Of a stretch of DNA of 24,636 bases, positions 275-24,543 are shown in pieces. The notes beneath the pieces are model-generated. The model made no database searches, had not been told where the DNA came from, and was given only the letters and a program-made list of their open reading frames with translations. Each line of letters begins with the position of its first letter. The first letter of the stretch is position 1. The translations under genes and the position numbers were made by a program. The DNA comes from Acidobacteriota bacterium (GTDB lineage Bacteria; Acidobacteriota; Blastocatellia; Chloracidobacteriales; JADJPF01), in assembly GCA_017303955.1 (NCBI GenBank), contig JAFLBC010000021.1, positions 79,810-104,445 on the forward strand, read 5' to 3'.

Positions 275-289
275 TTAATAGGGATTATT

Positions 290-793
290 ATGGAACAGGC
301 TTTTTTCCTTGTTTTAGCGGTTTTATCAGTAGGCGCAGCCTTAAGCGTAGTAATTCAACGTAGCCCACTTTATAGTGCTTTTTCCTTAATTGGTTTATTT
401 GCTTGTCTTGCCGCGCTTTATGTTTCCTTACAAGCACAATTTCTTGGTGCTATTCAAATCATTGTTTATGCAGGTGCGATTATGGTTTTGTTTATCTTTG
501 TGATTATGTTGCTTAACATACGCAAAGATGCTCAAGTTTTAGATAAGCATCGCTATCTTTGGGTTTTAGGTGTCCCTTTTGGGCTAGTGCTAGCTATAGA
601 AGTTCTTTATACCTTATCTAAAGTAGCAAAAGTTAGTATTGATAAACCTGCTATAGGGGATAGCCAAAGTATAGGTTATGGCCTGTATACTACTTATTTA
701 ATGCCATTTGAGCTAACTTCAATACTAATTTTACTTGCAATAGTTGGTTCAGTAATTTTGGCTCGCCGAGATGATGAAAAAGAAGAGAATTAA
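290..793 (+). CDS. nuoJ: NADH-quinone oxidoreductase subunit J
   Basis: 167-aa polytopic membrane protein. It has the NuoJ/ND6-like N-terminus ([16 protein letters not shown]...SLIGLF) and sits between nuoH and nuoK. A weak SD (aggga) lies upstream. Confidence 0.85.
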
Positions 794-807
794 GGAGAGA
801 TATTTTT

Positions 808-1110
808 ATGGTACCGCTTTCCTGGTATTTAGCTTTAAGTGCAGTGCTTTTTACTATTGGTGCTGTAGGAGTTTTTGTTAAACGAAATGTTATTTCTATC
901 TTTATGTGTATTGAGTTAATGCTTAATGCAGTAAATTTAACCTTAATTGCTTTTTCTTCTTATTATAGAGAAATTTCAGGTCAACTATTTGTCTTTATTG
1001 TAATGACTGTTGCTGCTGCTGAAGCTGGTGTAGGATTGGCTCTAGTCATTGCTGTCTTTCGTAATCGTCAATCTTTGGATGCAGACGACGCAAATTTATT
1101 AAAGCTTTAG
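808..1110 (+). CDS. nuoK: NADH-quinone oxidoreductase subunit K
   Basis: 100-aa three-TM protein with the NuoK/ND4L pattern ([13 protein letters not shown]...[10 protein letters not shown]...[10 protein letters not shown]). A strong SD (aaggagag) lies 7 nt upstream. Confidence 0.9.
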
Positions 1111-1144
1111 AAATTTTGCCAAAAAAAGTATAGAGGCATTATAA

Positions 1145-3226: not shown

Positions 3227-3251
3227 TTAATAATTTATTGCGGAAAAAATT

Positions 3252-4802: not shown

Positions 4803-4823
4803 AATTATAGAGAGAAGATTGCT

Positions 4824-7955: not shown

Positions 7956-10868
7956 ATGAGACTAACGCTGGCTATATTAACTAAGATATATAAGCTAATG
8001 TTTATTACAATATTTATTGGATTATGTTCAACTTTAACATTAGCTCAAGCAACTAAAGGCGATTTTAACCTTGAAATTAATCCAAAATCTGCAACTATTC
8101 CCGTAGGCAATGCAACCAGCTTTAGTATTTCTTTAACACCTGTAAATGGATTTAATGAAGCAATAAAACTAACAGCTAGTTCTTCTGTAAAAATAGATAT
8201 AGATTTCTCTACTAATTCAGTTAGACCGCCAGCTACAGTGACTATGAGAGTTAGCGTCCCTGATACTATACAACCAGGTAGCTATACAATAGGTGTTACA
8301 GCAAGTTCTGGATCAATTACAAAATCACAAAATATAACTATTAATGTCCCTTCGCCAACTTTTAGCTTAAGTGTTAGCCCTACGTCTGTACAAACTACAC
8401 CAAACAGTAGCTTGGATTTTACTGTCTCAGTTGGTGGAGGAAGTGACTTAAAACGAGATGTTTCATTGAATGCTCAAAGCAAAGACGGCTTACCTGTGAG
8501 GTTGTCTAGTGATTTTGTTAGGCCTCCTGGCAGTGTTCGTATGACAGTTACTATTCCTACTGGAACGGAGATAAGAAATTATCAGGTAGTAGTTACTGGT
8601 AGTTTACCAGGCAGTACTACTTCACAAACTGCTACAGTTAACATTGATGTCAGACCTTTACCAGATTATAGGCTTAGCTTTAATCCTACTTCCATTTCTT
8701 TGGCTGCTGGTGAGTCAGGAGATGTTTTTGTCAACATAGCTAGTCTTAACGGGTTTGATCAAAATGTAGACTTAAAAATAGACACTGAACTTAAAGCTTC
8801 CCTTTCTTCCACTGTCATTAATGGAGCAGGTACAACTCGTTTATCTATTAATACAGATCGGAATACGGCTGTTAAAGATTATTTAATTACAGTCAATTCC
8901 TCTAGTAACACTAAAGGAGGAGTAATTACAAAACGCGATACTCTAACAGTTACAGTTACTGCACCGCCTGATTTTACATTAGTTGCTTTACCAAATACTT
9001 TAGATATAGATCCAGGTAAAAGTGCTAATGTTAATGTTTCTATTACTCCTACTAATAGGTTTACTGGAATAGTGAATTTAACAACAAATCCATCTAACCC
9101 TAATATTACAACTAGTTTAACTAGTAATAATATTGGCCCAAACTCAAGTGCAAGTTTAGCAATAAACGTTGGTGCTAATGTTGCACCAGGTACTTATGAT
9201 ATAAGCGTTTTTGGTTCATCTAGCGGAATACCGCAGAAAACAACAATAGTTAGAGTAAATGTTAAATCTGTAGGGGATTTTGACTTGTCACTTAACTCTA
9301 ATAAACAAGAAATTATGGCAGGCGAATCTGCTAATTTTGTTGTTAACACACTCGGACAAATGGGTTTTGCAGAAAGAATTACACTTTCTGCCAGTGTTGA
9401 TGGGCTTCAAACTAGCTTTTCTCCTACTACAATAGATGCAACTGCTATGTCAACTTTGATTGTTAATACTACACAAGAAACAGAGGCTAAAGATTATTTA
9501 GTTACTATTACTGCTAGAGGTGGAGGAATCACTAAGACCACAACAGCTACATTAACAGTAAAACCTCGCTTAATTGGTGATTTTACTTTGATAACTACAC
9601 CAGACTTGCAAACGCTTTCTGCTGGTAAATCAACATCTTTTAGTTTAGCAATAAATCCTGAAAATGGTTTTAATGAGCCAGTTAATTTAACTGCCGAAGT
9701 GTCAGAAAGCTCTATACAAGTAGTCTTTTCTAATAAAACTGCAAGACCTGGTGATAATATTTCTGCTACTATTATTACAACTGGAACTACACCTCCTCAA
9801 AATTACTCTATTAGAATTATAGGTGCTTCAGGTTCCTTAGTTAAAACTGCATTATTTGGCCTAAATGTTACTCCTCAAGTGCAGGAAGCTTTCTCCTTAG
9901 CATTAGCACCTAATCTACAAAGTATTGCTAATGGTGAATCTACAATGTTTACCGTTGGGGTAGTTGGTCGTAATGGCTTTAATCAAGCTGTTAGCTTAAG
10001 TGCTAGTACAACCGATCCAAGCATTCAACTTAATTTTGATAGTTCAAGTGTTAATGCTGGAGGCAATACTTTTATTACTGTAACTACTAGTTCTAATACT
10101 CAACCAGGCACTTACACTATTTCAATTACAGGTAGGGCAGGAAGTTTAACAGTTTCTCAGCCAGTAATTTTAGCTGTTCGTCAAGCTGTTCTAAAAGTAG
10201 ACATTAGCTTTGACCCTCCTCAAGTAGGGCAAATGGGGCCTCCACAAAATGTTAAAGTTGTAGCAACAGAATTAAAACCAGGACAAACTCAATCAATTAG
10301 AACAAGTGCCAATAAACTAGAACCTTTAGCAGATAGTGATTTAGCAGGCTTTAAGATTTATAGGCTTCCAACACCAGCAGAGGGACAACCAGCTTTAACC
10401 GCAGAAGACTTGGTAAAAGATGAAAACTTAATAGCTACAATTCCTAATGATACAACAACTTTTACTGATAATGTTCCAGTAGGGGCAAGCTCAACAGGTA
10501 ATTTCACTTATTCAGTAACAAGCTTTTTTGGAAATGGGCAAAATAGCAATGGTTCTAATCCTATGGGAACGGAACTACCTGTAATTAGAAATCCAAAGTT
10601 TATCAAAGGAACAATTTTCTTAGATTCAGCAAGTTCTTTTATCAACGCAACAGGCGCAACAATAATAATTAATGGTATAGATGAGTATCCATTAATTTTT
10701 AATTCTGAAGCTACTCAATTTACAGTTAATAAGAAAATTACCAGCTTACCAAGTAGCATAACTTTGAAAAAATTAATTAAAAAAGGTCAAACTGTAGAAT
10801 TAGTAGTTAGAAATAAGGATGGTAAACTGTCTGTAGCTAAAAGTCTTACTCGTCCTAAGAAAAAATAA
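7956..10868 (+). CDS. Large secreted/cell-surface protein (970 aa): N-terminal signal-like hydrophobic segment, seven tandem ~100-aa Ig-like (CARDB/NEW3-like) beta-sandwich repeats, and an FN3-like C-terminal region
   Basis: The N-terminus KLMFITIFIGLCSTLTLAQA is signal-peptide-like. Seven repeats share the pattern F-x-L-x-x-x-P....G.S..F.V.h...NGF...V.L.A....(Y.I.V.G.SG). The protein is Ser/Thr/Asn-rich. The C-terminal ~225 aa has FN3-like strands (NVKVVATELKPGQTQSI...FKIYRL...YSVTS). Confidence 0.7.
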   Translation: MRLTLAILTKIYKLMFITIFIGLCSTLTLAQATKGDFNLEINPKSATIPVGNATSFSISLTPVNGFNEAIKLTASSSVKIDIDFSTNSVRPPATVTMRVSVPDTIQPGSYTIGVTASSGSITKSQNITINVPSPTFSLSVSPTSVQTTPNSSLDFTVSVGGGSDLKRDVSLNAQSKDGLPVRLSSDFVRPPGSVRMTVTIPTGTEIRNYQVVVTGSLPGSTTSQTATVNIDVRPLPDYRLSFNPTSISLAAGESGDVFVNIASLNGFDQNVDLKIDTELKASLSSTVINGAGTTRLSINTDRNTAVKDYLITVNSSSNTKGGVITKRDTLTVTVTAPPDFTLVALPNTLDIDPGKSANVNVSITPTNRFTGIVNLTTNPSNPNITTSLTSNNIGPNSSASLAINVGANVAPGTYDISVFGSSSGIPQKTTIVRVNVKSVGDFDLSLNSNKQEIMAGESANFVVNTLGQMGFAERITLSASVDGLQTSFSPTTIDATAMSTLIVNTTQETEAKDYLVTITARGGGITKTTTATLTVKPRLIGDFTLITTPDLQTLSAGKSTSFSLAINPENGFNEPVNLTAEVSESSIQVVFSNKTARPGDNISATIITTGTTPPQNYSIRIIGASGSLVKTALFGLNVTPQVQEAFSLALAPNLQSIANGESTMFTVGVVGRNGFNQAVSLSASTTDPSIQLNFDSSSVNAGGNTFITVTTSSNTQPGTYTISITGRAGSLTVSQPVILAVRQAVLKVDISFDPPQVGQMGPPQNVKVVATELKPGQTQSIRTSANKLEPLADSDLAGFKIYRLPTPAEGQPALTAEDLVKDENLIATIPNDTTTFTDNVPVGASSTGNFTYSVTSFFGNGQNSNGSNPMGTELPVIRNPKFIKGTIFLDSASSFINATGATIIINGIDEYPLIFNSEATQFTVNKKITSLPSSITLKKLIKKGQTVELVVRNKDGKLSVAKSLTRPKKK
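8064..10187 (+). repeat. Seven tandem, diverged ~300-nt coding repeats (protein domain repeats) inside the 970-aa gene
   Basis: Repeat units start at about nt 8064, 8361, 8667, 8973, 9279, 9582 and 9891. Each encodes 99-103 aa beginning F/Y-x-L-x and containing a conserved N-G-F. They are diverged at DNA level (domain duplication, not a recent repeat). Confidence 0.7.
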
Positions 10869-10930: not shown

Positions 10931-12049
10931 TTAAACATTACTTTGACGAAATCTTAGTGATGCTAACAGTAACATTACTAGTCCCATAACTAACATTACT
11001 GCTCCATTTACCCATAAATGATTAAAACCTGCTCCACGTAAAATAATGCCTCGCAAAGTATCAATATAGTAAGTTGTAGGAATAAAACGGCTTATCAACC
11101 AAAATATTTTTGGCATATTATCTAATGAAAAAATATAGCCTGACAAAAATATTGCTGGTAGCAATGTACTCATCGCCATTTGCATTGCTTCGCTTTGAGT
11201 ACGCGCTTTTGTAGAAATAATTAACCCCATCCCTAAAATAGTTAAAATAAAAGGAATAGAGAAAATTAATAGTAAAATTACACTTCCATGAATTGGTACA
11301 TCAAAAGCATAACGCATCACCAGTAAAATCCAGCAAAGCTCAAAAAATCCTAATATCCCATAAGGCAACATCTTTCCTACCATTAACCCTAATGGGCTAA
11401 TAGGTGCTAGGTAAAGATTTTCTAATGTTCCTCGTTCCCGTTCTTTTACTAAAGAAAATGAAATTAAAGCAATTAACATCATTTGTAAGACTACAGCGAC
11501 TAACCCAGGAATAAAAAAGTTAGCTGAACGAGTGCTGGGATTAAAAAGAACTTTATGCCGTGATTCAACTACACCAGGTGATTTTGCTACAATTCGTTTT
11601 AATGATTCTTGTAAAGTAATAGCACTAGATACATTTACTGCCTCACTTGTAACATTTGATTCCGAACCATCAACTAGCAGTAAGACACTAGTGTTTATAC
11701 CTTTTTGCAGAGCGCGTGAGTAATCTTCAGGAATTTTAATTCCAACTTTTGCTTCTCCTGCAACAATTTTATCATAAAGTTCCTTATCAGAATTTACTCT
11801 AGCAACTACATTAAAGTCATCACTATTAATATAACGTTCAATTAAAAGATGACTTTCCTGAGTTTTTGCCAGGTCATAAACTACTGTTTTTATTTGACGT
11901 ACATTAGTATCTACAGCAACGCCTAGTAAAACCATTTCAAAAATAGGTATAAAAAGAGCAAAAAATAATGTTGTTGGGTCGCGTAGTATCTGAAGTATTT
12001 CTTTCTTAAAAACAGGAATTAAGCCTGAAAAAAGATAATTTTCACTCAT
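10931..12049 (-). CDS. ABC-2 type transporter permease (YhhJ/YbhS-like), 372 aa
   Basis: N-terminal TM helix, then a large extracytoplasmic loop, then five C-terminal TM helices ([16 protein letters not shown]..., [22 protein letters not shown]..., [22 protein letters not shown]...). Its start codon overlaps the upstream ATPase stop by 4 nt (ATGA). Confidence 0.8.
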
Positions 12050-13026
12050 AACTTTGTACCTCCTAACAGCGATATGTTGTTAGTAATATTATTAGTTAGA
12101 GTGACAAAAATATCTTCTAAGGAAGGTCTGATAGGGTTTATTACTAGATTTGTAAAACCTGCTGTTTCTAGGTCTTCTTTCAATTTGGAACTACTTTGAG
12201 TTTTTTCACAAAGCACATGAATTGATTGACCAAAAATTGTTGATTCCCAAACATAGGGAAGATCTTTAATAAAACTTAATGCTTCAGATGGAGAGCTAGA
12301 AAGAATTTCTAAGCGTGTTGAACCAACAGGAGAAACTTCTGGCAACGTTCTTAGTTCGTCAACAGTTCCAACAGCAATTAAGTTTGATAAATAGATATAA
12401 CCAACACGGCGGCATCTTTCGGCCTCATCCATATAATGTGTTGTAACAAAAATAGTTATCCCATTAGCAGAAAGCTTAAAAAGCAGATCCCATAAAGCCC
12501 GACGTGCTACAGGGTCAATTCCCGCAGTAGGTTCATCTAGGAATAATACTTCAGGTTCATGAATAATTGCACATCCTAAAGCTAAACGTTGTTTCCAACC
12601 ACCAGATAAAGCACCTGCACGACGTTCTAAATAAGGGGTTAAGCCTGTTAGCTCTAAAACTTCAGGTTTACGTAACTTTATTTGATCTTTTTTCATATGG
12701 TATATGCCAGCATAAAAATCTAAATTCTCATTTACTGTTAGCTCTTCATAAAGACTAAATTTTTGAGACATATAACCAATGCGTTTTTTAATTTTAAAAG
12801 AATCTTTATGAATATCTAAACCAAGAATTTTACCTTCACCAGTTGCATGAGTAATTAGCCCACATAAAGCTTTAATAATCGTAGTTTTACCAGAGCCATT
12901 TGGCCCAAGTAAGCCAAAGATTTCACCTGTTTTTACTTGAAAAGAAACTTTGTTAACAGCAGTAAATTTTCCAAATTTGATGGTTAAATTTTTTGTTGAA
13001 ATTACTGGATCTATTGTATTTATCAT
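12046..13026 (-). CDS. ABC transporter ATP-binding protein, 326 aa
   Basis: Walker [13 protein letters not shown] signature [12 protein letters not shown], Walker [13 protein letters not shown]-loop TTHYMDE. A ~90-aa C-terminal extension follows. It lies 3 nt after the HlyD gene. Confidence 0.9.
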
Positions 13027-13029
13027 AGC

Positions 13030-14172
13030 TTACTCCATTGGCTTTAATTTAACATCAGCCGCCATGCCAGCCTTAAGTAAGCCTTCTTTGTTATCAATAT
13101 GAATTTTAATTGCAAAAACTTGATGAGAACGTTCATCACGATTTTGAACATTTCGGGGTGTAAATTCAGCTTTAGCTGAAATTTGTTCTACTTTTCCAAG
13201 AAAAGCTTTGTTAGGAAAAGAATCAACAAAAACTTCTACTTCCTGTCCAACTTGGACAAAACCCAGATCAGGTTCTGGCACATAGACACGTACACGAATT
13301 TGATCACTTTCCAAAAGTCTTGCAATAGGGCTAGTTGCTTGAACTAGATCGCCTACTCGAACACTAAGCAAATCTATTTGACTATCAACAGGAGCAATTA
13401 CTTCTGCTTCATTTAGTTGGGTGTTAAGTTTTTCAAGCGTCGCATTAGCTTCGGCTAGTCGTGCTTTAGCTTCCAAAATATCTTCGCTTCTTGCACCAGA
13501 TTTAAGTAATTTTAGGTTAGCAATAGCTTGTTGGTAACGTTCTTGACCTACACGAATATCTTCGCTTCTTGTTCCTGCTTCTAAAAGAGCAAGTTTTTGC
13601 TGTAAGGATTGATAACGAGAATCACTTAAAGCTACTTTAGCAGCCATATCATCACAGCTTTGTTTAGAAACATAGCCTTCCTTAAAAAGCTGTTCTAATC
13701 TAGCTAAGGAGGTTTTATAGTGATTTAGTTCAGCTTTTACACCAATAATTTCTTCTTTTAGTTGGGAAATTTCTTGGGGACGTGGGCCATTTTTTAAGGC
13801 TTCTAATTGGGCTAGTTCACGATTAACCGTTGCTTGGGCTTGTGCAATTTCTTCTGTCCGATAACCATTTTCTAGCTTTTTTAGATAAGCCTCAGCTTGG
13901 TCAATTTTTGCTTGGAGTTGTTTTTTTTCTGCTAGCAGGGTGTCATTATCAAATCGTACTAGAGGAGTCCCTTTTTTTACTATTTGCCCTTCTTGTGCTA
14001 AAACTTCTATGACACGACCACCAATTTTAGAACCAATTTGTACTTCTTGAGCTTCGATTGTTCCAAAAAGCAAAAGTTCTACTTTTGTGCTTTCGCTTTT
14101 TGTATACATTCCTGTTACTACAATACCAAATGAGATTAATAAAATAATGATAACAACAAGTTTTTTATACAT
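13030..14172 (-). CDS. HlyD-family membrane fusion (periplasmic adaptor) protein, 380 aa
   Basis: N-terminal TM anchor (LVVIIILLISFGIVVTGMY) and a long central coiled coil (repeated LxxAxxxL/E-Q heptads). The C-terminal beta-domain motifs (VRVRVYVPE, AADVKLK) are typical of HlyD/EmrA adaptors. Confidence 0.85.
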   Translation of the reverse strand: MYKKLVVIIILLISFGIVVTGMYTKSESTKVELLLFGTIEAQEVQIGSKIGGRVIEVLAQEGQIVKKGTPLVRFDNDTLLAEKKQLQAKIDQAEAYLKKLENGYRTEEIAQAQATVNRELAQLEALKNGPRPQEISQLKEEIIGVKAELNHYKTSLARLEQLFKEGYVSKQSCDDMAAKVALSDSRYQSLQQKLALLEAGTRSEDIRVGQERYQQAIANLKLLKSGARSEDILEAKARLAEANATLEKLNTQLNEAEVIAPVDSQIDLLSVRVGDLVQATSPIARLLESDQIRVRVYVPEPDLGFVQVGQEVEVFVDSFPNKAFLGKVEQISAKAEFTPRNVQNRDERSHQVFAIKIHIDNKEGLLKAGMAADVKLKPME

Positions 14173-14213: not shown

Positions 14214-16874
14214 TTAGTCTTTGATCATTATTTGGCCTTTATCACCGTCAACAGTTATATGTTGACCATTTTTAATTATAGTAAGCAGATTAGGAATATT
14301 TACTACTGCCGGTAGTCCATATTCACGCGCAACAATCGCGCCATGAGATAAAAATCCTCCTACTTGCATAACTATTGCTGAAGCACGTAAAAAAAGAGGT
14401 GTCCAACCTGGGTCAGTTGTAGGGGCTATAAGTATTTCTCCTGGAGCTAACAGATTGCCTTCTGATGGGTGCATAATAATTCTTGCAATACCTGAATATT
14501 TCCCGCTAGATACTGCTAAACCTTTTAATATTGTGCCATTTGAAGTTTTTTCTATTATTGCTGGTTTATTGACTGCGCTAGTATTTGTTGTAGGGTTGCC
14601 AAAATGATCAAAAATATAAAAATCTTTAATAGTTGTTTCTTTTAACCAAATTTCTCTTTGGTTTCTATTGTCTGTTGCTATTTCTCTTGCTCCTTGTCCG
14701 TTCCATTGGCCTGTTAAATAAGCTTCCATATCAAAACCGCTTAAATGAAAAATATCTGTTGGATCATCTAAGAAACCACTGTTAACAAGGCGTTTACCAA
14801 CTTCTAAGCAAATTTTTCTAATAGGCTCTATGGTTGCAACTAACGTAGATTTGCTAAGTTCGCGTAGTGCTGCACCTTGGCGAGCTTTTTTAGTAAACCA
14901 ATTGATTAAAGGACGATAAGGAAAAGAAAGCTGTGAAATTTCTTTTTCTGCTGCTTGACGAACTGCTATAGCAGTGTTTTTTGGGGAAGTGATGTTTTCT
15001 GAGCTTAAAATTAATTGTATTTGTTCAAATAAATAGCTAGGGTCTTCATTCCATCGTGGGTTGGCTGTTTCAGCTTCATAAACTGCCCGATGTCCAAATT
15101 CAGCTAAAAACTTTTCAAACTCTTGACGAAAACTAGATGTTTTAGGAAGCTTTTGCCAGTCTTTAGCAATAATTGGTGTTTGTTTTAGATAAGTAAGTGC
15201 GTCTGTGTCTTGTTGTGCTACTTTGGCTAAATGGTAAAGTTGATAACCATGCTCTGCTGTAGTAACTTGTCCGCTACCAGCTAAAACCGCTGTAGTTAAA
15301 GCCTCGGCCCTCTCAGGTTTAATTTTTGTTAGCGTTTCTTTAATTGGTGTCACCCACGCACCAGCATTAGCATTAGCCAACTGAAACTTTTTAGCAAATT
15401 CATATTGAAAAACTAAAATTTCCCTAACTAAATCTGCTAATTCTTGATTAGATTTACTTGCTACATCTGTGTTTTTCCAACCCTTTATGCGTGTTTGTAA
15501 AGTGACAATATCTTTTGGCATTTGTCGGGAAATCTTAAGCAATACTCTAAGAAATTTTATTTGTCTTAGTTTACGTGTTAATCCTACTTTACCTTTTAGG
15601 GGATCGCCTGAAGGCACAGGAATTAAAGGATGATGACCGCCTAGTCCCCGTGAAGTGTCTTCGGGAGACATTCCAACAGCATCATAAAAAGCCCATTGCA
15701 TAGTTGTTACTTCAAAATAACCACGTCCGTTAAAACGCTTAAGCATTGGTGAACCATCTTTTCTGGGATAATCCATTGCATCTAAGATTTCATATAAAAT
15801 TTCAGAAACAAAGTCATGCACCATATGCCAGGTTAAAGTAGTCGGTACACCTGCAACAGCGTCTTGAATATTTCCTGTTGACCAAATTATTGGTAAATGC
15901 TCAATATTTGGGAAAGTATAATGAGGTAAACGGGTTACAGGTCTAGCTTGAAGCAGCCAAAACTTTTCTCCATCAAATGCCCATTCTATGTCCTGTGGGT
16001 TATCACCTTTTCCTATTGCCCAATGAATACGCCAAACCAGTTGAGTTAATTTTATTGTTTGTTCTGGAGTTAAAACTTGTTGCTCAGGGCTTTTTCTTGA
16101 TATTTCAGTTAGATTACCTTCTTTAGATAAAACTGTAATTTCTTCAGGATTAACTTGACCACTAACCAGGGCCTCAGCTAAACCATTGACAGCATTAATT
16201 GTTACAACATTAAGTTGACCTGTTCGCGGGTCGCAAGAAAATGCTACACCGGCTGATTTAGCCTTGACCATCTCACAAATTACTACAGCACAAGCCACTT
16301 GGTCATCTTTCAAATTCATTTTACGACGATAAGCAATTGCTTGTGGTGTCCAAAGTGAGCCATAACAACCTTTAATTGCATCAATTATTTCTCTTAGCCC
16401 TTGAACATTTAGAAAACTGCGATGAATACCAGCAAATGAAGCCGTTTCGCTATCTTCTGCCGTCGCGCTAGAACGAACGGCAACAGATGTATTTAATAAG
16501 TTATTTTGTTTAAGAAAATTTTCTAGCTCTAATGTAAATTCTTTTGAAAAATTAATGTTGGCTAAAATCTCTTGGATTTTATTAAGTTTTTCTATTGTTT
16601 GAGCTTCTGAGACGGATAAAGGGGATATATTTTCTAATTCTAATTGTAGGCTTTTTAACTCTGGGCTAAGCATTATTTCTTGATAAAGGTTGGCTGTAAC
16701 TACACCGCCTACAGGAACTTGAAAGCCATAGCGGTAAAGCTGGCCTAATTTCCAGCCTTTTCCACCACAAAGCGCGGCTCCAGCTAATGCTGCTGTTGTC
16801 CAATCTAAGATTTTGCTACTTGTAATTTCTTCATCATTTATAAAATTAATTGCTACTTGACTTGCATTGCTCAT
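14214..16874 (-). CDS. PEP-utilising phosphotransferase of the PEP synthase/PPDK family with rifampin-phosphotransferase-like architecture: N-terminal ATP-grasp, ~450-aa middle domain, C-terminal His swivel domain; 886 aa
   Basis: N-terminal PPDK_N-type motifs (GGKGWKLGQL, VAVRSSATAEDSETASFAGIHRSF, QDIEWAF). The extreme C-terminus is the PEP-utilisers mobile domain with the catalytic His (APTTDPGWTPLF...GGFLSHGAIVAREYGLPAVVN). There is no C-terminal TIM-barrel PEP/pyruvate domain, so this is not a canonical PpsA or PPDK. Confidence 0.8.
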   Translation of the reverse strand: MSNASQVAINFINDEEITSSKILDWTTAALAGAALCGGKGWKLGQLYRYGFQVPVGGVVTANLYQEIMLSPELKSLQLELENISPLSVSEAQTIEKLNKIQEILANINFSKEFTLELENFLKQNNLLNTSVAVRSSATAEDSETASFAGIHRSFLNVQGLREIIDAIKGCYGSLWTPQAIAYRRKMNLKDDQVACAVVICEMVKAKSAGVAFSCDPRTGQLNVVTINAVNGLAEALVSGQVNPEEITVLSKEGNLTEISRKSPEQQVLTPEQTIKLTQLVWRIHWAIGKGDNPQDIEWAFDGEKFWLLQARPVTRLPHYTFPNIEHLPIIWSTGNIQDAVAGVPTTLTWHMVHDFVSEILYEILDAMDYPRKDGSPMLKRFNGRGYFEVTTMQWAFYDAVGMSPEDTSRGLGGHHPLIPVPSGDPLKGKVGLTRKLRQIKFLRVLLKISRQMPKDIVTLQTRIKGWKNTDVASKSNQELADLVREILVFQYEFAKKFQLANANAGAWVTPIKETLTKIKPERAEALTTAVLAGSGQVTTAEHGYQLYHLAKVAQQDTDALTYLKQTPIIAKDWQKLPKTSSFRQEFEKFLAEFGHRAVYEAETANPRWNEDPSYLFEQIQLILSSENITSPKNTAIAVRQAAEKEISQLSFPYRPLINWFTKKARQGAALRELSKSTLVATIEPIRKICLEVGKRLVNSGFLDDPTDIFHLSGFDMEAYLTGQWNGQGAREIATDNRNQREIWLKETTIKDFYIFDHFGNPTTNTSAVNKPAIIEKTSNGTILKGLAVSSGKYSGIARIIMHPSEGNLLAPGEILIAPTTDPGWTPLFLRASAIVMQVGGFLSHGAIVAREYGLPAVVNIPNLLTIIKNGQHITVDGDKGQIMIKD

Positions 16875-17505
16875 AAGGTGGAACTCCTTTAGCTAAAGAG
16901 AAATCCAGACTTGGTTTAGCACCTTCTAAAAACAAAGAAAGACAAAAATTAAGTTTTTCTTTTAATGAAATATTTTCACTAGATTCTAGCCAATATCTTA
17001 CTGAATGGATGAAAACAAGCCCAAAGATTTGTGAAAGCTCATAGGAAGAAATATCATTTCTAAGCTCGCCTTTTTCTTGTGCTGTGGCTAAAAACTTATG
17101 GACAACCTGCCTAAATGAAGGATGATCATGGCGTTCATGATGCTTTTTCATATGCTGATAATTACTAATGCTATAGTGGAAAAAAATATTAGCTAGCTTA
17201 CGGTTTTCTGTTAGCCATCTTGCGGCTTCTGCTAGAAAATCCTGAAGTGCAATAAGAGGTGATTGACCTGTTTCTATAGCTATTTGTGTACGCAAAGCGT
17301 TTTCTAACATAGCCGTTTCACCAAGTGCTAAAACTAGTTCCTCTTTACATTCAAAATGATAATAAAATGTTCCCTTAGCTACTTTGGCAGCTTTAGTAAT
17401 ATCGTCTATAGTGGTTGTTTCATAACCTTGTTTGGTAAATAGTGAAATTGCTGTAGAAATGATTTGCTCACGGGTGGCAGTTCGTTTTTCTTCTCTTAAT
17501 CCCAT
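16846..17505 (-). CDS. TetR/AcrR-family transcriptional regulator, 219 aa
   Basis: N-terminal HTH TREQIISTAISLFTKQGYETTTIDDITKAAKVAKGTFYYHFECKEELV is a canonical TetR_N. It is the first gene of the operon. Its 3' end overlaps the phosphotransferase start by 29 nt. Confidence 0.85.
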   Translation of the reverse strand: MGLREEKRTATREQIISTAISLFTKQGYETTTIDDITKAAKVAKGTFYYHFECKEELVLALGETAMLENALRTQIAIETGQSPLIALQDFLAEAARWLTENRKLANIFFHYSISNYQHMKKHHERHDHPSFRQVVHKFLATAQEKGELRNDISSYELSQIFGLVFIHSVRYWLESSENISLKEKLNFCLSLFLEGAKPSLDFSLAKGVPPYEQCKSSSN

Positions 17506-17654: not shown

Positions 17655-18032
17655 ATGACAAATAAAGAAATTCAAAAATTAATAGAATTTATTATCACTC
17701 AACAAGCAGAAATGTCTGTAAAACATGCACAGATACTTGATATTCAATTTGAAACTGCAAAAAGACAAGGTGAATATGAAAAACGCCAAGCTGAATTTGA
17801 AATCAAATTTAACAATAAATTAGATGCTTTATTAGATTGGCAAGCAAAATTTAGTATTGATTTAGAAGATTTAAGAAAAGAGACTAAGGAATTTAGAGAC
17901 GACCTTAAAAAAACTAAAGATACCCTTAAAGAAACTAATGATATCCTTAAACAAGTTTCTCATTTGGCTGTTGAAACTTCTGAAAGAGTTGATAAGCTTG
18001 AAGATAAGCTTGAAGATAACGAAAAAGAATAA
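17655..18032 (+). CDS. Small highly charged coiled-coil protein (125 aa), hypothetical
   Basis: Lys/Glu/Asp-rich ORF with heptad-like periodicity (LKETNDILKQV..., VDKLEDKLEDNEKE) and no TM segment. It is divergent from the TetR operon and convergent with the 502-aa ORF. Confidence 0.5.
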   Translation: MTNKEIQKLIEFIITQQAEMSVKHAQILDIQFETAKRQGEYEKRQAEFEIKFNNKLDALLDWQAKFSIDLEDLRKETKEFRDDLKKTKDTLKETNDILKQVSHLAVETSERVDKLEDKLEDNEKE

Positions 18033-18059: not shown

Positions 18060-19568
18060 CTACGTTATTTTATCTAGTAACCAGGTAGGCCATTCAGATT
18101 CTTTATTCCAAAGTAAATATTCCTTTACATAATCTTGCAACATCACTCTAAAAAAAATAGGCAGTTGAAATTGCCCATTTCCTTTCCAGTAATTTTCCCA
18201 ATAAATCGGAAGAGAAAAATTAAATATTTTGTTAGCTTCCTGGATAATTCGTTGAAATTGATTGGTTTGTATTTGAAGGCTATCCAGGAAATCTTGTTGT
18301 AAAAATTTAATGCCTGATATGTCTGGCTGCCAACAATCAATCTTTTGCTCTCGCTCAATTTTTTGCTCTAAAACCTTCCATTTGTTATTAGCAGTTTTTC
18401 TTAAGACTCCAGCCTTAAAAAGCATTGGCAGCAATTCAATTACTACTTTTTTATTAAAAATAGCTAGCTGAGAGCTTTTTGCTGATAAATAAACCTCAAT
18501 TTCTTGGGCAGTAGCGGATAAATCTGTAATATCAATATTAGTAAAATCACATAATGCGTTAGCTAGGCGTTTAAGATAGATTTTTAAGCTAGTTGAAGGC
18601 TTTACAGATGGACAAGCATTGTCCAAGTCCCAAGAATAATTAAGTTCTGTGCGCCAAATTTCTGGTCTTTGTTGCCACCAGTTTAAGAGTAAAATTAGCA
18701 ATACTACTAGACGTTCTAAAGGTTTTGTTTCTGGAATAATTACTGTAAGTCGTGAACCTTCATTAATTTGCTCTGCATATTCTAGGCATTCTTTTAATAG
18801 CGTAGGCAAATAATTAATTTTTTGAAGAAACTCTGTTGCCAAAGAAACAAAGTTTGATAAATCACATTCAGCAAATAAAGAGCATAAATTTAATTTTCGT
18901 TTTACTCCAAAACAAGTAACAAACTCTAAACTTAATTTATTTTTTAAGTTGGGTAGTTCAGCAATATTAGTAATTTGCTTTAAGTTTGTTGCTACTTGCC
19001 AATAAGATTTTGGTGTAACGGTTAGTCGTTTTTCAAGGTCGTCTTGGCACCAAATAATGATTTTTTCCCGCAGTTTTATTATTGCTATTTTGCAAGCATG
19101 ATGAGGATCTGAGCCTAAATTAAAGTTGTCAAACCAGTCATCAATTGACACTTTTGACCAAAGTTTATTTGGACGATTAACGGCCATATCCAACAGAGCA
19201 GCAGCAGTTCTAGTTGCTGGATCATCTCTAAATAAACTTGGGTCAGCACTATAAATGCTTCCAATCCGAGGCATTCCGCTACGATAAAGCAGACCGGAAA
19301 AGGCTAGCCCAATAAATAAACCTGTAGGCTTTTTGTCTCCATAATCTACTTCACTGTCCTTCCACCTTGGCGCACTTTGGTCAGCTTGAAAATTAATGTC
19401 AATTAAGATTATGTCAGGGTCAATTAATTCTGTTTGAGTGTTAAGCAAATGTTGGGCAGTTGTCCAAGTGTCAATATGCAGTAAATCTAGATCATCTGCT
19501 CTTAAAACAGGATAAGAAATATAGTCATTTACATCATCGATTAATAGAATTTGTAGCTTATCACTCAT
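18060..19568 (-). CDS. Hypothetical 502-aa protein with an N-terminal receiver (REC)-like region; no recognised family
   Basis: The N-terminus LQILLIDDVND ... DIILIDINF ... GLFIGLAFSG resembles receiver-domain beta1 (acidic pair), beta3 (phospho-acceptor Asp position) and beta4. The remaining ~380 aa has no motif I recognise. It starts 6 nt after the 697-aa ORF stops, consistent with co-transcription. Confidence 0.55.
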   Translation of the reverse strand: MSDKLQILLIDDVNDYISYPVLRADDLDLLHIDTWTTAQHLLNTQTELIDPDIILIDINFQADQSAPRWKDSEVDYGDKKPTGLFIGLAFSGLLYRSGMPRIGSIYSADPSLFRDDPATRTAAALLDMAVNRPNKLWSKVSIDDWFDNFNLGSDPHHACKIAIIKLREKIIIWCQDDLEKRLTVTPKSYWQVATNLKQITNIAELPNLKNKLSLEFVTCFGVKRKLNLCSLFAECDLSNFVSLATEFLQKINYLPTLLKECLEYAEQINEGSRLTVIIPETKPLERLVVLLILLLNWWQQRPEIWRTELNYSWDLDNACPSVKPSTSLKIYLKRLANALCDFTNIDITDLSATAQEIEVYLSAKSSQLAIFNKKVVIELLPMLFKAGVLRKTANNKWKVLEQKIEREQKIDCWQPDISGIKFLQQDFLDSLQIQTNQFQRIIQEANKIFNFSLPIYWENYWKGNGQFQLPIFFRVMLQDYVKEYLLWNKESEWPTWLLDKIT

Positions 19569-19574
19569 AAATTT

Positions 19575-21668
19575 TTATTTTTGGAAAACAAGCTGAGGAC
19601 GAAATCTTATAGCAATAGAATGGTAATTTGATGGTGATTTATCTACAAGCAAAAATTCAACTAACTTTTTTTCTTCTCCTTTATCATTGCGAAATACAAA
19701 ACAGGAAAGCAAGTTTTGAGTTCTTTTTAGCCCATCGGAAAGTTCTGTTGGCTTTTCGTCCCCTGCTACAGGGTTAGAAATCAGTAATTCATAAAATTCA
19801 TCCTCTTCTAAAATTAAAGAAAACTTTATATCAATAATGTAATTGATTAAATCTTTTGACTTTAAGAAAAATTTCTTGTTTTGTTCTAGTTGTTTAACTA
19901 AATATTGGATTGCATTACCTAAAATCTCATGTATTCCTACTAGAAATAATGAGGTTGCCTCTATGCTAAATGGTGGAAATACAGGTATTTCTGCTAAATT
20001 GCTATTTTGTTCTAGTTTTGGACATAAACAATCATTTGATTTGCTACACTCAGCTTTATGAAAAATAATAGCAATACTACTAGAGTTAATTAGAGAGAAT
20101 AATAAATGCTGAATAATTTCTTGAATGGTTTTGCGCCAAAGGTCAGCAAACTCTTGTAAGTTAAAAGCATTAGTGTTATTAATAAGTTTTAATAAGTAAG
20201 TTTTAGGATTATCAAATTTTGTTACAGTTCTAATTGCATCTGTAAGATGATAAAGCTCTTGTAGGACGGCGCAAGTATAAAGCACTTCAGCCTTTTCTAT
20301 CGGCTCATTATTTAGGCTTTTAGCATAAAGAACGCGGTAACGACTCCGCCGGCTTAAGGTGTTCATAATTTCATGAGTTAAGCCTTGAGTAAGAAAATAT
20401 TGTTCTTTAATAATAATTGCTGCTGTTCGGGAAAGTTTTTCTCTAAATTGTGCTTCCCAATATTCTTCTTGACCAGGTAGATTTAACTTTACACCTGGAC
20501 AATTTCTGTAAATTACTAAATCAAAACCAAAGGCTTTTTTAAGTAAATAAGCATCTTTATGTCTGTTTAGATTAAAAATTATTGTTGCTGTAGAGTTGCT
20601 ATCTTCTTCAATTATCAGGAGTTTTGATTTTTCTGTACTAGATTCTGATATTGGTAAGGACGCTAAATTGTTTTCTTTTTTTTCTACTGAAAAATGAAGA
20701 GCTAAAGAGTTTTCTCTAAAAAATAAAATTTCTTCTGCAATCCATAAATGAGAAAAAACATTTGCAACGTTTTTCATTCTTTCCAAAGCATCTGTGTGTT
20801 TAGAAATAGCGTCTTCAAGTAGAAAAATAAAAACATCTATTAAATTAATAGAGTAAATTTCCTCAATTGCTAAAATTAATGATTCAGGAGGCGACTTTCT
20901 AACTAATCTAAGATGCTCTTTTAACTGCTTATTTTTAGGACAGATCCAGCCAGCCATAGCTCGCCATTGTGCTAAACCTCTTAGCGGTAACAAAATAGGA
21001 ATAAATGCGCTAGGCAGAATTTTGGAAAATGAAGATAGTCGTGCATAAAGATATTCTGCTAGGTAAATATGCAAATTTTCTGCTGTTATAAGATTGTTTT
21101 GAACTGTGTAATTTAATAATGCAATTAAATTAGAATACTTAATTTGTTTATATTGGTTAGGATTGTTATTTTTATTTAAGTTTGCTATATCCAATAGAGC
21201 TTGAAAACTAAAAGGAGTTTTACGATGACTACTACTAATTAAAAGAGCTTCAGCAGAAATAATATATCCAACCGCGCCGCCTATAAGTTCTAAGTGAAAT
21301 CCTAAATTTTCTTCACTTCCAACACCATCACCAATTTCAAGCAATTTACATAAGTCACTGGTTGGATCCAATATTTTGCTAGCAAGCTCAATTAAAGCTT
21401 GATGATTATTATCTACATTTTTGTAATTTTCTTGCCAATAAAGATAGATATTTTTTTTGATTTTTTCAGCACATTCTTTGGTGTTAGAGTTAGTTTGATA
21501 GCCTGTATCCCAGAACTGAATTTTGTCAGATAGAGGATTAAAACTTCTTTGTTGGGTAAGAAAAAAATGTTGTAGCTTAGGGGTAAAATGTTGCAATGTC
21601 CAAACTAGTAAATCAAAGCAGCGTTTTTGAATCGCTTCTGCATTTAATTTTGCTTCTAAACTTAGCAT
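19575..21668 (-). CDS. Hypothetical 697-aa protein; no recognised family
   Basis: Long uninterrupted ORF, Asn/Lys/Ile/Leu-rich. It has one short motif, HEILGNAIQY, reminiscent of a GHKL/histidine-kinase N-box, but no G1/G2 boxes are evident. It is the upstream partner of the 502-aa ORF. Confidence 0.55.
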   Translation of the reverse strand: MLSLEAKLNAEAIQKRCFDLLVWTLQHFTPKLQHFFLTQQRSFNPLSDKIQFWDTGYQTNSNTKECAEKIKKNIYLYWQENYKNVDNNHQALIELASKILDPTSDLCKLLEIGDGVGSEENLGFHLELIGGAVGYIISAEALLISSSHRKTPFSFQALLDIANLNKNNNPNQYKQIKYSNLIALLNYTVQNNLITAENLHIYLAEYLYARLSSFSKILPSAFIPILLPLRGLAQWRAMAGWICPKNKQLKEHLRLVRKSPPESLILAIEEIYSINLIDVFIFLLEDAISKHTDALERMKNVANVFSHLWIAEEILFFRENSLALHFSVEKKENNLASLPISESSTEKSKLLIIEEDSNSTATIIFNLNRHKDAYLLKKAFGFDLVIYRNCPGVKLNLPGQEEYWEAQFREKLSRTAAIIIKEQYFLTQGLTHEIMNTLSRRSRYRVLYAKSLNNEPIEKAEVLYTCAVLQELYHLTDAIRTVTKFDNPKTYLLKLINNTNAFNLQEFADLWRKTIQEIIQHLLFSLINSSSIAIIFHKAECSKSNDCLCPKLEQNSNLAEIPVFPPFSIEATSLFLVGIHEILGNAIQYLVKQLEQNKKFFLKSKDLINYIIDIKFSLILEEDEFYELLISNPVAGDEKPTELSDGLKRTQNLLSCFVFRNDKGEEKKLVEFLLVDKSPSNYHSIAIRFRPQLVFQK

Positions 21669-21688
21669 TGCTTTTATGTTTGGAGCTT

Positions 21689-21717
21689 AGGGATTTTCAT
21701 ATTGTATAAAAATCCCT
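21689..21717 (-). other. Stable 9-bp-stem hairpin in the 61-nt spacer between the M28 peptidase gene and the 697-aa ORF
   Basis: AGGGATTTT (21689-21697) pairs with AAAATCCCT (21709-21717) around an 11-nt loop. There is no U-tract after it on the minus-strand transcript. It may be a partial terminator, an RNA processing or stability element, or a protein-binding site. Confidence 0.4.
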
Positions 21718-21729
21718 AATGTTAATTAA

Positions 21730-23349
21730 TTAATCGCGTTCACGAGTATATGCGTCTGGCAATGGGTTATCTACAACAGGACGAGATGCGCGATTAGCTA
21801 AATCTAATGTAGTCATATAGATAGTACGGGTGACTTTTTCCATTTTTTGATAATCTATTTTATCAGGGCTATCTGAGGGTTTATGATAATCTTCATGAAC
21901 TCCATTAAAGTAGAAAATAATTGGGATACCTTTTCTAGCATAATTATAATGATCGCTACGATAGAAAAATCTATTAGGGTCATTTGGATCATCATAAGTG
22001 TAATTAAATTTTAATTTTAAGTATGAGTTATTTACCGATTCGCTAACTTGGCCTAGTTCGCTACTCATTAGCTTTGAGCCAATTACATAAATTTCATCTG
22101 GGCCGGAAAGCTCTTTATTAGCTGGTTTAGTGTCGTTTGGTTCTTTGCTACGACCAATCATATCAATATTTAATTGTGTAATGATTTGATTAAGCGGTAC
22201 AGTTGGGAATTTCATTAAATAGCGTGAACCAAGTAAGCCTTTTTCCTCTCCACAATGCCAAACAAACATTATTGAACGTTTAGGGCGTGACGGCGCGTGA
22301 GAAAAGGCTTCTGCAAGTTGTAGAACTGCTACTGTGCCTGACCCATCATCATCAGCACCATTATAGATTTTATCTCCATTTACAGGCGAGCCTACACCAA
22401 CATGGTCATAATGTGCGCCAATGGCTACATACTCATTTTTTAGTGTTGGATCGCTACCTTCTAAAATTGCAATTACATTTTGAGAGACTTCTTTTTCAGC
22501 TTTAACAGCTATTTTTAAGGAGATTTTTTTGTCTTGTTTTAATTCAAAAGGGGCAATTGTTTGGCTAACATCACGAAAAATACTATTAGCTGATTGGGAT
22601 TCTTCGCTAAACATTTTTATTAGTAATTTTGGGGAAGGGCTTATCACAGGTAAGGAAAAAGATTTTTCTTCTAATTTTTCAAAAATTGTTTGTCCTTGTT
22701 CTTCAAAATAAGAAACAGTTCTATCCCAACTAGCTAAACTTTCAAAACTTGGAATTAGGATAACTGCTTTACCACCATTTTTTTCTATATAATCAAAAGG
22801 CTCAAACCAATCTTCTCCTTCATTTCCTGTTAGGTCATTATAGCTAAGACCTTGTGGAAAACCATTGGAGATAACAACAATTTTGTCTTTAATATCAAGG
22901 TTTTGATAAGGGTTGATATTTTTAGATTTAATTACCCAGCCATGACTTGCAAAAACAAGAGGTGCTGTTAAATCTGTTTCATTAGGAAAAGCAAAAAAAT
23001 CTTCTCCTAACTTAAAGCTCTGACCTCCAAATGTTACAGAACTATTAACACGGTCTGTTTTGTTACGACGTATTTGGATTTTTTGAAAATATGAACCATT
23101 GTCCCCACCAGGCTTTAAGCCCCACATAGAAAGGTTCATAGCCAAAAACTTGGCCGTCATATTTAACCCTTTAGATGGTGTGTCTCGTCCTTCCATCTCA
23201 TCAGAAGCAATAAAATAAAGATAATCTTTCATTGCTGAAGCATTAATTTTATCTACTCCTGTAGCCCCAGGATTTTGCGCTAACACAGAATTTAGCGGGC
23301 TAAGTAACAAGCAAAATAATATTAAATTGAGTAAAAATTTTTTCATCAA
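21730..23349 (-). CDS. Secreted M28-family zinc aminopeptidase (539 aa) with signal peptide
   Basis: Signal peptide MMKKFLLNLILFCLLLSPLNSVLAQ. M28 metal-ligand and catalytic motifs AHYDHVG, GADDDGSG, HCGEEKGLLGS, NIDMIG and SDHYNY. A strong SD (aggggaa) lies upstream. Confidence 0.85.
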   Translation of the reverse strand: MMKKFLLNLILFCLLLSPLNSVLAQNPGATGVDKINASAMKDYLYFIASDEMEGRDTPSKGLNMTAKFLAMNLSMWGLKPGGDNGSYFQKIQIRRNKTDRVNSSVTFGGQSFKLGEDFFAFPNETDLTAPLVFASHGWVIKSKNINPYQNLDIKDKIVVISNGFPQGLSYNDLTGNEGEDWFEPFDYIEKNGGKAVILIPSFESLASWDRTVSYFEEQGQTIFEKLEEKSFSLPVISPSPKLLIKMFSEESQSANSIFRDVSQTIAPFELKQDKKISLKIAVKAEKEVSQNVIAILEGSDPTLKNEYVAIGAHYDHVGVGSPVNGDKIYNGADDDGSGTVAVLQLAEAFSHAPSRPKRSIMFVWHCGEEKGLLGSRYLMKFPTVPLNQIITQLNIDMIGRSKEPNDTKPANKELSGPDEIYVIGSKLMSSELGQVSESVNNSYLKLKFNYTYDDPNDPNRFFYRSDHYNYARKGIPIIFYFNGVHEDYHKPSDSPDKIDYQKMEKVTRTIYMTTLDLANRASRPVVDNPLPDAYTRERD

Positions 23350-23399: not shown

Positions 23400-24287
23400 T
23401 TATTGGCGGCTAGCAATATTGCTTAAAAATTCTAATAGAGCATCTAAAACTTTTTCTGGGGCTTCTATTTGTGGATAATGGCCTATATTATGTAATGGTA
23501 CTACATCAGGATTTGGAATCAATTCACGATACCGATCAGCCATTGCTTGCCCAGAAGTAGGTGCAAACATCCCATTAATTAAGCGTAAAGGAACTTTGGT
23601 TGTTTGCATTGCTCCTACCCAACGATTACGAAACTTTTTTCTTTCTTCTAAATAACGGATGATTTTATGTGCTGCTGCTGTCCCATTATTGTATTTTAAG
23701 AGTTGCCAGTAATTATCTACTTCTCTTTCTGTTGGCTTAGTATTTGGGCCAAACATTGCTATAAAACCTTTCTTAAATTGCCCTTCAGAAATTAATTTAC
23801 TAAAAATTGCGCCTAATGGACTCATCAATAATTTTTGAATTAGTAAAGCTTGGTGTGCTTCAGGAAACATTCCACCATTAAGAAAACAAATCCCTTTTAT
23901 TTCAAAACCTGCTTGGTTATTTTTTTTTCGATCTTCATAACGGGCTAATAATTCTTGTGTAATAGTATCACCATAATCTTGAGCTAAAATATAAGCTTGC
24001 TTTACTTCTAAACACCTAAGCAATGTTTCGTGTAGTGTAGTTTGATAATCAATAGAATAAACATCTTCAGCAGGTTTATCAGAGAAACCAAAACCTAGCA
24101 TATCAGGAGCAATAACTCTGAAACGCTTGGTTAATTCGGGCCATAAAAGATGCCAATCCCAAGACGAAGTTGGAAAACCATGAATACAGATTAAAATATC
24201 TTCTCCTTGACCATCATCACGATAAAAGACCGTGTGGCTACCATATTTAAGGTATCCACCTTCATTTTTCCAATCTTCTAACTTCAT
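23400..24287 (-). CDS. Alpha/beta-fold hydrolase, epoxide hydrolase/haloalkane dehalogenase-like subfamily (Asp nucleophile), 295 aa
   Basis: Oxyanion-hole HGFP motif (HGFPTSSWDW), nucleophile-elbow sm-x-D-x-G (LAQDYGDT) with Asp in place of Ser, and a C-terminal catalytic His (NIGHYPQIE). SD agaaggaaaa upstream. Confidence 0.75.
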   Translation of the reverse strand: MKLEDWKNEGGYLKYGSHTVFYRDDGQGEDILICIHGFPTSSWDWHLLWPELTKRFRVIAPDMLGFGFSDKPAEDVYSIDYQTTLHETLLRCLEVKQAYILAQDYGDTITQELLARYEDRKKNNQAGFEIKGICFLNGGMFPEAHQALLIQKLLMSPLGAIFSKLISEGQFKKGFIAMFGPNTKPTEREVDNYWQLLKYNNGTAAAHKIIRYLEERKKFRNRWVGAMQTTKVPLRLINGMFAPTSGQAMADRYRELIPNPDVVPLHNIGHYPQIEAPEKVLDALLEFLSNIASRQ

Positions 24288-24460: not shown

Positions 24461-24543
24461 AAAATCATCATCATTTTCTTTTTCGCTTTTAAATCAATCA
24501 TCATCAAAAAATCATCATCAAAAAATCATCATCAAAAAATCAG
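24461..24543. repeat. Tandem direct repeats of a 14-nt unit AAAAAATCATCATC (about 3.8 copies at 24491..24543) plus a related copy at 24461..24477
   Basis: Read directly from the sequence. Full copies at 24506-24519 and 24520-24533, a variant copy at 24491-24505 (AAATCAATCATCATC), and a truncated fourth copy (AAAAAATCAG). The array is non-coding and lies upstream of an ORF start at 24585. Confidence 0.8.

Follow-up and report, generated by a model that had tools for sequence, protein, structure and literature searches.

How are two large adjoining genes to be understood that match no protein family at the level of sequence? The question is raised by a stretch of 24,636 nucleotides from an Acidobacteriota bacterium (assembly GCA_017303955.1, contig JAFLBC010000021.1, positions 79,810 to 104,445 of the forward strand), which as a whole is called the window here and in which an earlier note, made from the letters alone, had singled out two open reading frames (ORFs) as an orphan module and candidate undescribed signalling or defence system. 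Re-reading of the sequence gave exactly the coordinates claimed for the two minus-strand ORFs and the gap of 6 nt between them (19569-19574):

Gene A, 19575-21668, minus strand, ORF of 697 amino acid residues.
Gene B, 18060-19568, minus strand, ORF of 502 residues, encoding the partner protein.

With a probability of about 0.6, A and B are a co-transcribed cytoplasmic signalling pair of the two-component type that has drifted too far to be picked up by sequence profiles. What carries this reading is the predicted fold of A, the conserved residues, the strict pairing, the operon structure and the native composition of the two genes.

Since full-length homologues of the pair with 60-68% identity occur in metagenomic contigs that range in guanine-plus-cytosine (GC) content from 34% to 57%, A and B are genuine genes and not chance ORFs. 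Scans of both proteins against Pfam, NCBIfam and PADLOC yielded zero matches even at E<=1, in line with the claim of the earlier note that neither shows the signature of a recognisable family; the claim stands for the sequence level but not for the structure level, where A is predicted to have a histidine-kinase-like fold. The family is small. Word-indexed searches of 5.8 billion proteins found six relatives of A and nine of B. When an A profile was run exhaustively with HMMER against 1.84 billion cluster representatives, 25 proteins came out at E<=1e-3, 21 of them distant, mostly 700-800 residues long and aligning over their full length. Nineteen full-length distant relatives with about 17-21% identity were taken into the alignment A3. 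When genomes of GTDB and metagenomes of JGI were scanned with the A motif, the named carriers were solely metagenome-assembled genomes of Acidobacteriota (Blastocatellia, Thermoanaerobaculia and "uncultured Acidobacteriota"), the remainder being metagenome contigs. Wherever the organism is named, the A-B family is thus restricted to this phylum. An identical protein is on record under the name "Acidobacteria bacterium J0M03_20915", and among genomes the nearest match is a metagenome-assembled one of Blastocatellia.

Are the two genes also kept together? Searches with hidden Markov models over all ORFs of the fetched loci (numbered with an L) showed that an A-like gene has a B-like gene directly behind it in all but one of the 15 distinct loci, 14 in number (the window, L001, L002, L003, L007, L008, L009, L012, L013, L015, L017, L020, L021 and L022), which bears out the pair as a syntenic unit in other genomes; in the sole locus without this order, L016, the A gene looks truncated. 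The pairing spans about 17-68% identity and GC contents of 34-68%, and an overlap of 4 nt between the stop codon of A and the start codon of B is frequent among the loci. In hhalign, the B family and the distant B-like protein of L012 align over 452 columns (probability 96.8%, E 2.5e-10). With adjacency kept across such deep divergence, the pair is an old and strictly conserved operon.

What kind of protein is A? An AlphaFold2 model built on an alignment of 23 sequences (mean pLDDT 78.8, predicted template modelling score 0.65) was compared with known structures by Foldseek. The top match was a full-length Pseudomonas bacteriophytochrome (9eut_A, E 1.5e-5, 570 columns); after it came plant phytochromes, NifL, the tandem-GAF phosphodiesterase PDE6, EL346 and HprS. 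On phytochromes of PAS-GAF-PHY-HK architecture and on PDE6 the alignment covers at least 570 columns. Listed as matches were also ThkA, PhoQ, NtrB, AgrC, WalK, HK853, CpxA and CckA, and DHp-CA structures are among the fold matches. The template modelling scores (TM-scores) of the matches from the bacteriophytochrome to HprS are only about 0.17, and the likeness is therefore one of domain order and not of global geometry. No transmembrane segment was found in A. Most likely A is a cytoplasmic sensor in which a GAF-like region is joined to a C-terminal module of histidine-kinase fold, and the model suggests the following division:

21075-21668, minus strand, residues 1-198, alpha/beta region, possibly a first GAF/PAS-like module (from the secondary structure of the model and Foldseek; boundary inferred).
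20484-21074, minus strand, residues ~199-395, GAF-like domain with the family signature LPLxGLGQWRAxxxW (boundary inferred).
20220-20471, minus strand, residues ~400-483, DHp-like helical hairpin (boundary inferred).
20373-20375, minus strand, candidate phospho-accepting His432 within GLTHEIMNTL.
19578-19964, minus strand, residues 569-697, CA (Bergerat/GHKL) domain (boundary inferred).
19911-19928, minus strand, Glu581 and Asn585 of the N-box GIHEILGNAIQY, inside the CA domain.

In the full-length alignment Pro228, Gly231, Gln234, Arg236, Trp241, Leu308, Glu581 and Asn585 are invariant. The LPLxGLGQWRA motif lies on the first beta-hairpin of the GAF-like domain, and no Pfam model matched this signature. 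Ahead of the CA domain the model places two helices (400-452 and 459-483), and His432, the predicted site of autophosphorylation, is kept in 22 of the 23 family members, so that both the predicted structure and the conservation provide the DHp hairpin with a conserved His that is typical of sensor histidine kinases, as the predicted fold provides their Bergerat-fold CA domain. Within the N-box Glu581 and Asn585 are invariant (23/23 each) and Ala586 is found in 22/23. The motif that had been described as isolated and HK-N-box-like thus sits inside a predicted Bergerat-fold domain, and from this location together with its conservation it is taken to be a real kinase N-box. The N-box segment was also the part aligned when the A family was compared by hhalign with EnvZ, albeit without significance (probability 1.3%) and with a hand-entered EnvZ sequence. 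By eye, the H-box (HEIMN, or HxxKN in distant members) and the N-box (HEILGNAIQY) seem to resemble the motifs of HisKA_2/HWE kinases.

The partner protein B can be divided into two parts, of which the first was called receiver-like by the earlier note:

19233-19568, minus strand, residues 1-112, degenerate receiver-like region with ILLIDD (Asp12), DIILIDINF (Asp57) and KPTGL (Thr82).
19398-19400, minus strand, Asp57 in DIILIDINF, putative phospho-acceptor.
18063-19232, minus strand, residues 113-502, mostly helical; winged-helix-like matches weak; EWPxWL conserved at the C-terminus.

Asp12 and Asp57 are kept in 11 of 11 B-like proteins, even where identity is down to about 20%, and the residue at position 82 is Thr or Ser in nine of the ten B-like proteins that reach it (Arg in L022). 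In its conservation B thereby offers the acidic pocket, the acceptor Asp and the beta4 Thr/Ser of receivers. Against an alignment of five hand-entered receiver (REC) sequences, hhalign aligned residues 1-61 of B with a probability of 32% (E 4.8e-4), the Asp residues of B falling into register with Asp13 and Asp57 of the REC alignment; when the B family was compared with CheY alone, only 15 residues were aligned. Helices alpha1 and alpha3 of the receiver fold are not predicted in B, and the AlphaFold2 model, built from seven sequences, is of low confidence and unreliable over residues 1-112. The receiver-like start is plausible from the retained Asp, Asp and Thr, but the statistics do not secure it. 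Mainly because of this conserved pattern and of the strict pairing with a kinase-fold protein, we regard B as a degenerate receiver-derived protein and as no more than a putative member of the receiver family. In the C-terminal part the only fold matches are winged-helix, and these are weak; residues 349-442 show a faint, non-significant likeness to the Ras-binding domain of RAF (E 0.17).

Are A and B newcomers in this genome? The earlier note had judged by eye that the segment is more AT-rich than the housekeeping genes around it. A has a GC content of 0.308 and B one of 0.340, as compared with 0.33-0.38 for the neighbours, and the difference, like the slightly low value of A, comes from the first two codon positions and so reflects the amino acid content. 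At the third codon position (GC3) the values are 0.198 and 0.249, with 0.14-0.31 for the other genes of the window, and the codon-usage distance to the rest of the window (0.077 for A, 0.091 for B) is within the range of the neighbours, the nuo genes among them. The difference in AT content is thus marginal, and by GC3 and codon usage both genes lie inside the range of the flanking genes and are native. Likewise the share of Asn, Lys and Ile, 0.24 in A and 0.22 in B, is only slightly above that of soluble neighbours. Horizontal acquisition of A-B was considered and rejected on the grounds of native GC3 and codon usage.

The genes around the pair vary with the lineage. In the near clade, in five sister lineages (loci L001/L014, L002, L003-L006, L008 and L009), A-B stands back-to-back with a divergently oriented gene of about 200 codons, the product of which matches MglA of Myxococcus xanthus (PDB 5ymx) with E 6.8e-83; direct reading of L008 shows that its contig ends inside this mglA gene. 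The other flanks differ among all five lineages. No Roadblock/MglB gene is found beside the near-clade mglA, as seen in the neighbourhoods of L001 and L003, whereas for 390 of 449 surveyed MglA genes a coupled MglB lies at most four genes away (PMC4316618). The spacer between mglA and A, which is elsewhere unalignable, contains a conserved block of about 50 bp, TTTATTTyTAnCAyAG ... AAAAGC ..., ending in TCTTACACnAnCTTACA. This end is a direct repeat, CTTACA-N4-CTTACA, with a 10-bp period, which is invariant and occurs once per locus in the five lineages, and which we consider a candidate operator or promoter element:

L001, 9897-9912, CTTACA-N4-CTTACA.
L002, 265-280, CTTACA-N4-CTTACA.
L003, 9847-9862, CTTACA-N4-CTTACA.
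L008, 104-119, CTTACA-N4-CTTACA.
L009, 719-734, CTTACA-N4-CTTACA.

Neither the window nor the distant loci contain the repeat; allowing two mismatches, two occurrences were found in the window with 4.1 expected, no excess over chance. A tblastn search of the window for mglA gave no match. The whole block has decayed in L025 (6018-8810), which is closely related to L001 and shares its outer flanks: of mglA the final 69 codons are left, joined directly to the final 65 of A, and of B the final 270, with two unrelated genes, a TPR gene and one of 152 codons, inserted between the remnants of A and B.

In the high-GC distant clade the company is a different one, with a Ser/Thr kinase with TPR repeats upstream of A-B (L015, L017, L022), an unknown protein of about 380 residues together with a class-V aminotransferase downstream or nearby (L012, L015, L017, L022), and genes of a Liv-type ABC transporter (L012, L020, L021). 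These recurring neighbours are located as follows:

L015, 2123-4465 and 8496-10801; L017; L022, 2533-5043 and 9980-12342, recurring distant-clade neighbours.
L012, 7189-13381; L020, 3261-4265; L021, 2-3949, recurring distant-clade neighbours in further loci.

Neighbours that vary with the lineage around a fixed pair of sensor and partner are as expected of a regulatory module.

Several observations weigh against a working two-component pair. At the G1 position of A, where the Asp that contacts adenine would be expected and the end of the strand reads ISNPVAG, stands Asn632 (20/23) and neither an Asp nor a DxGxG motif, an equivalence that rests on a reading of the alignment; the G2 region has one conserved Gly (Gly646, 19/23), the next residue being Leu, Val or Ile; and with about 14 residues from Asn632 to Gly646 the ATP lid is very short. 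The acidic residue after His432 is kept in the near clade but not in the distant branch. Taken together, the Asn at G1, the short lid and the unconserved acidic residue imply that A may be a pseudokinase. None of the 23 A-family members matches the Pfam HisKA, HATPase_c or Response_reg profiles and their variants even at E<=10, Pfam scans of ten distant A homologues were empty, and sequence searches of the PDB with the profiles A1, A2 and A3 returned chance-level matches only (a CCA-adding enzyme, the RAF Ras-binding domain with E 0.17 and a designed helical protein). For B, Pfam Response_reg gives no match at E<=1, and no receiver Lys at the end of beta5 is conserved in the IGSIYSADP / GIGIHTRN segment. 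Finally, mglA is missing near A-B in the window, in the contigs L010 and L011 of the same species and in all distant loci. The pair would work in the manner of a GAF-histidine kinase with its response regulator, but formally it departs from two-component membership on several counts, with no profile match, no Asp at G1, no receiver Lys and a receiver fold that is only putative. It is best filed as a highly divergent two-component variant that is a member of no described family, yet not categorically new. The signalling half of the earlier proposal receives support, from the GAF/DHp/CA fold of A, the receiver-type Asp, Asp and Thr of B and the adjacency of the genes across deep divergence.

How could such a pair work? 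Kinase activity, phosphotransfer, ligand and output are what we infer for A-B. The GAF-like domains of A with their invariant LPLxGLGQWRA hairpin presumably bind a small intracellular ligand, and the ligand status of this region would set the phosphorylation of His432. The phosphoryl group would then move from His432 to Asp57 of B, and phosphorylation of Asp57 would switch the output of the winged-helix region. The C-terminal helical region of B with its winged-helix-like modules probably binds DNA or a protein partner. The target would differ by lineage. In the nearest sister lineages the divergent mglA would be the likely target or partner; in the high-GC Acidobacteriota the Liv-type ABC genes, the unknown protein of about 380 residues and the class-V aminotransferase are the neighbours, and in the window no target is evident.

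Alternatively, A-B may act directly on the MglA GTPase and not on transcription, A as a pseudokinase or scaffold of histidine-kinase fold and B as a receiver-like adaptor, so that by analogy with RomR-RomX and the actinobacterial conservon the two might serve as guanine nucleotide exchange factor, GTPase-activating protein, recruitment factor or effector of an MglA that has no MglB. This we consider rather unlikely. The divergent mglA in five sister lineages with otherwise differing flanks would be explained, as would the missing Roadblock/MglB next to these genes when 390 of 449 are coupled elsewhere, and there are precedents for MglA-family GTPases with such partners, a histidine kinase in the conservon and the receiver protein RomR; the degenerate G1 box of A would also fit. 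The joint decay of mglA, A and B in L025 points in the same direction, but it is largely one deletion across neighbouring genes, for which a functional link is not needed. Similarly, the faint likeness of B residues 349-442 to the RAF Ras-binding domain would fit but is non-significant, and the conserved repeat in the spacer suits transcriptional control at least equally well. Moreover, the window, the contigs of the same species and the whole distant branch keep A-B with no mglA nearby. The broader proposition, that A-B is an unrecognised regulatory module for MglA in Acidobacteriota without coupled MglB, in which A with its non-canonical nucleotide pocket and B would sense an intracellular ligand and act on MglA directly or via CTTACA-N4-CTTACA in the shared promoter region, appears doubtful to a similar degree; the lineage of the window would then have split the module from mglA.

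That the best structural match of A is a bacteriophytochrome raises the thought of a phytochrome-type photoreceptor kinase with a bilin bound in the GAF domain, which is very improbable: no Cys is conserved across the A family, the invariant residues being Pro, Gly, Gln, Arg and Trp, no heme-oxygenase gene adjoins the pair in any locus, and with TM-scores of about 0.17 the match is one of domain order and not of geometry.

Some defence systems do contain GHKL-fold ATPases. That the pair defends against phages or works by abortive infection, as two large co-transcribed ORFs without family assignment could bring to mind and as the other half of the earlier proposal had it, is nevertheless scarcely credible, as PADLOC (PADLOC-DB v2) gives no match at E<=1, neither A nor B shows a nuclease, protease, TIR, Sir2 or membrane effector domain, the best structural matches are sensory histidine kinases and not GHKL proteins of the MORC or topoisomerase type, the codon usage is native, the family keeps to one phylum wherever the organism is named, with the same local arrangement in sister lineages, and the roughly 15 distinct neighbourhoods hold housekeeping or signalling genes; a defence cluster is recognisable in none of them, and the sole defence-like neighbour is a single DNA methyltransferase of the D12 class in L003. 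Nor is the pair the cargo of an accessory island.

Which genes surround the pair in the window itself? Its other features are:

17-6341, plus strand, nuoH-N, followed by a TPR protein, an ORF of 123 residues and a protein of 970 residues.
7956-10868, the protein of 970 residues, without family (sub-threshold Pfam matches to WxLIP_HBD and DUF7266 only).
10931-14172, minus strand, ABC-2 permease, ABC ATPase and HlyD-like protein.
14214-16874, minus strand, PPDK_N/PEP-utilizers protein of 886 residues.
16846-17505, minus strand, TetR regulator, overlapping the 886-residue protein gene by 29 nt.
17655-18032, convergent to B, Glu/Lys-rich coiled-coil-like ORF of 125 residues.
21687-21719, minus strand, inverted repeat TTAGGGATTTT-N11-AAAATCCCTAA with 11-bp arms, read directly, in the 61-nt spacer from the stop of the M28 gene to the start of A.
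21730-23349, minus strand, M28 peptidase.
23400-24287, minus strand, alpha/beta hydrolase.

A precomputed Rph_4th label is attached to the copy of the 886-residue protein on a same-species contig, and because of this label the protein is probably rifampin-phosphotransferase-like; together with the TetR regulator and the HlyD, ABC ATPase and ABC-2 permease genes it may constitute an antibiotic resistance and efflux cluster. Inside the coiled-coil ORF lie three short tandem repeats (17759-17802, 17903-17951 and 17991-18019). The ORF is present in L010 and L011 of the same species and in no other A-B locus, and it is therefore probably not part of the module. The inverted repeat upstream of A could possibly be a terminator or an operator and is at most a putative part of the system; its arms are kept in L010 of the same species, where the loop is found in inverted form (ATACAATAT as against ATATTGTAT). 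The repeat array of the earlier note is a perfect 14-bp tandem repeat, AATCATCATCAAAA, of 3.4 copies (24491-24542), which stands upstream of the alpha/beta hydrolase gene. As to the flanks described in that note, the convergent coiled-coil-like ORF, the M28 peptidase and the alpha/beta hydrolase are as stated, but the possible start of a mobile element is not supported: no such element starts on a longer contig of the same species, which continues with genes encoding an unknown protein of 139 residues, a PHP-domain protein, CutA1, an amine oxidase and a spermine synthase.

What could be learned from such a family? Two-component systems are counted and classified almost wholly via Pfam profiles, and A-B suggests that a whole family, kinase and partner, can evade every profile library and become visible through structure prediction only. 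As the pair is invisible to profiles, lists of signalling proteins are incomplete for phyla that have been little studied, Acidobacteriota among them. With 25 clusters among 1.84 billion representatives the family is also a natural test of how far an ATP pocket and a receiver site drift while the pair is under selection, and an mglA without adjoining mglB is a testable lead on the control of MglA outside Myxococcus and Thermus.

How does the pair compare with known systems? From the GAF sensor histidine kinases with HisKA_2/HWE cores (EL346) and from the bacteriophytochromes A differs in that there is no similarity at the level of profiles, that an Asn takes the place of Asp/Glu at G1, that the lid is very short and that the chromophore Cys is missing. 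It is like a bacteriophytochrome in architecture (Foldseek E 1.5e-5), but unlike it in lacking the invariant Cys and a heme oxygenase nearby. B resembles the OmpR/PhoB-type and pseudo-receiver regulators in that acidic and Thr receiver positions at the N-terminus are followed by winged-helix matches, and response regulators with winged-helix output in its place directly downstream of a kinase-like gene. Unlike the OmpR/PhoB type it has 502 residues versus about 230, no receiver Lys, no predicted alpha1 and alpha3, and a large, mostly helical C-terminus with weak winged-helix matches that are not trans_reg_C, without a Pfam match. The conservon (CvnA-D) and RomR-RomX of M. xanthus are signalling modules coupled to MglA-family GTPases (PMC4316618 among the sources); a module of the conservon type has its histidine kinase, Roadblock/MglB, CvnC and GTPase of the MglA family encoded side by side. 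In contrast to CvnA, which has a transmembrane segment, HAMP and LPxR, A is soluble and without these; the A-B loci have no Roadblock/MglB (L001, L003) and no CvnC-like gene, the window has no mglA, and the MglA of the sister loci is of the Group-1 type and not of Group 2, judging by eye from its TVPGQ motif and the Arg finger ER-T. What A-B shares with the conservon and RomR-RomX is the combination itself, a protein of histidine-kinase fold and a receiver-like protein beside an MglA-family GTPase, as found in five sister lineages.

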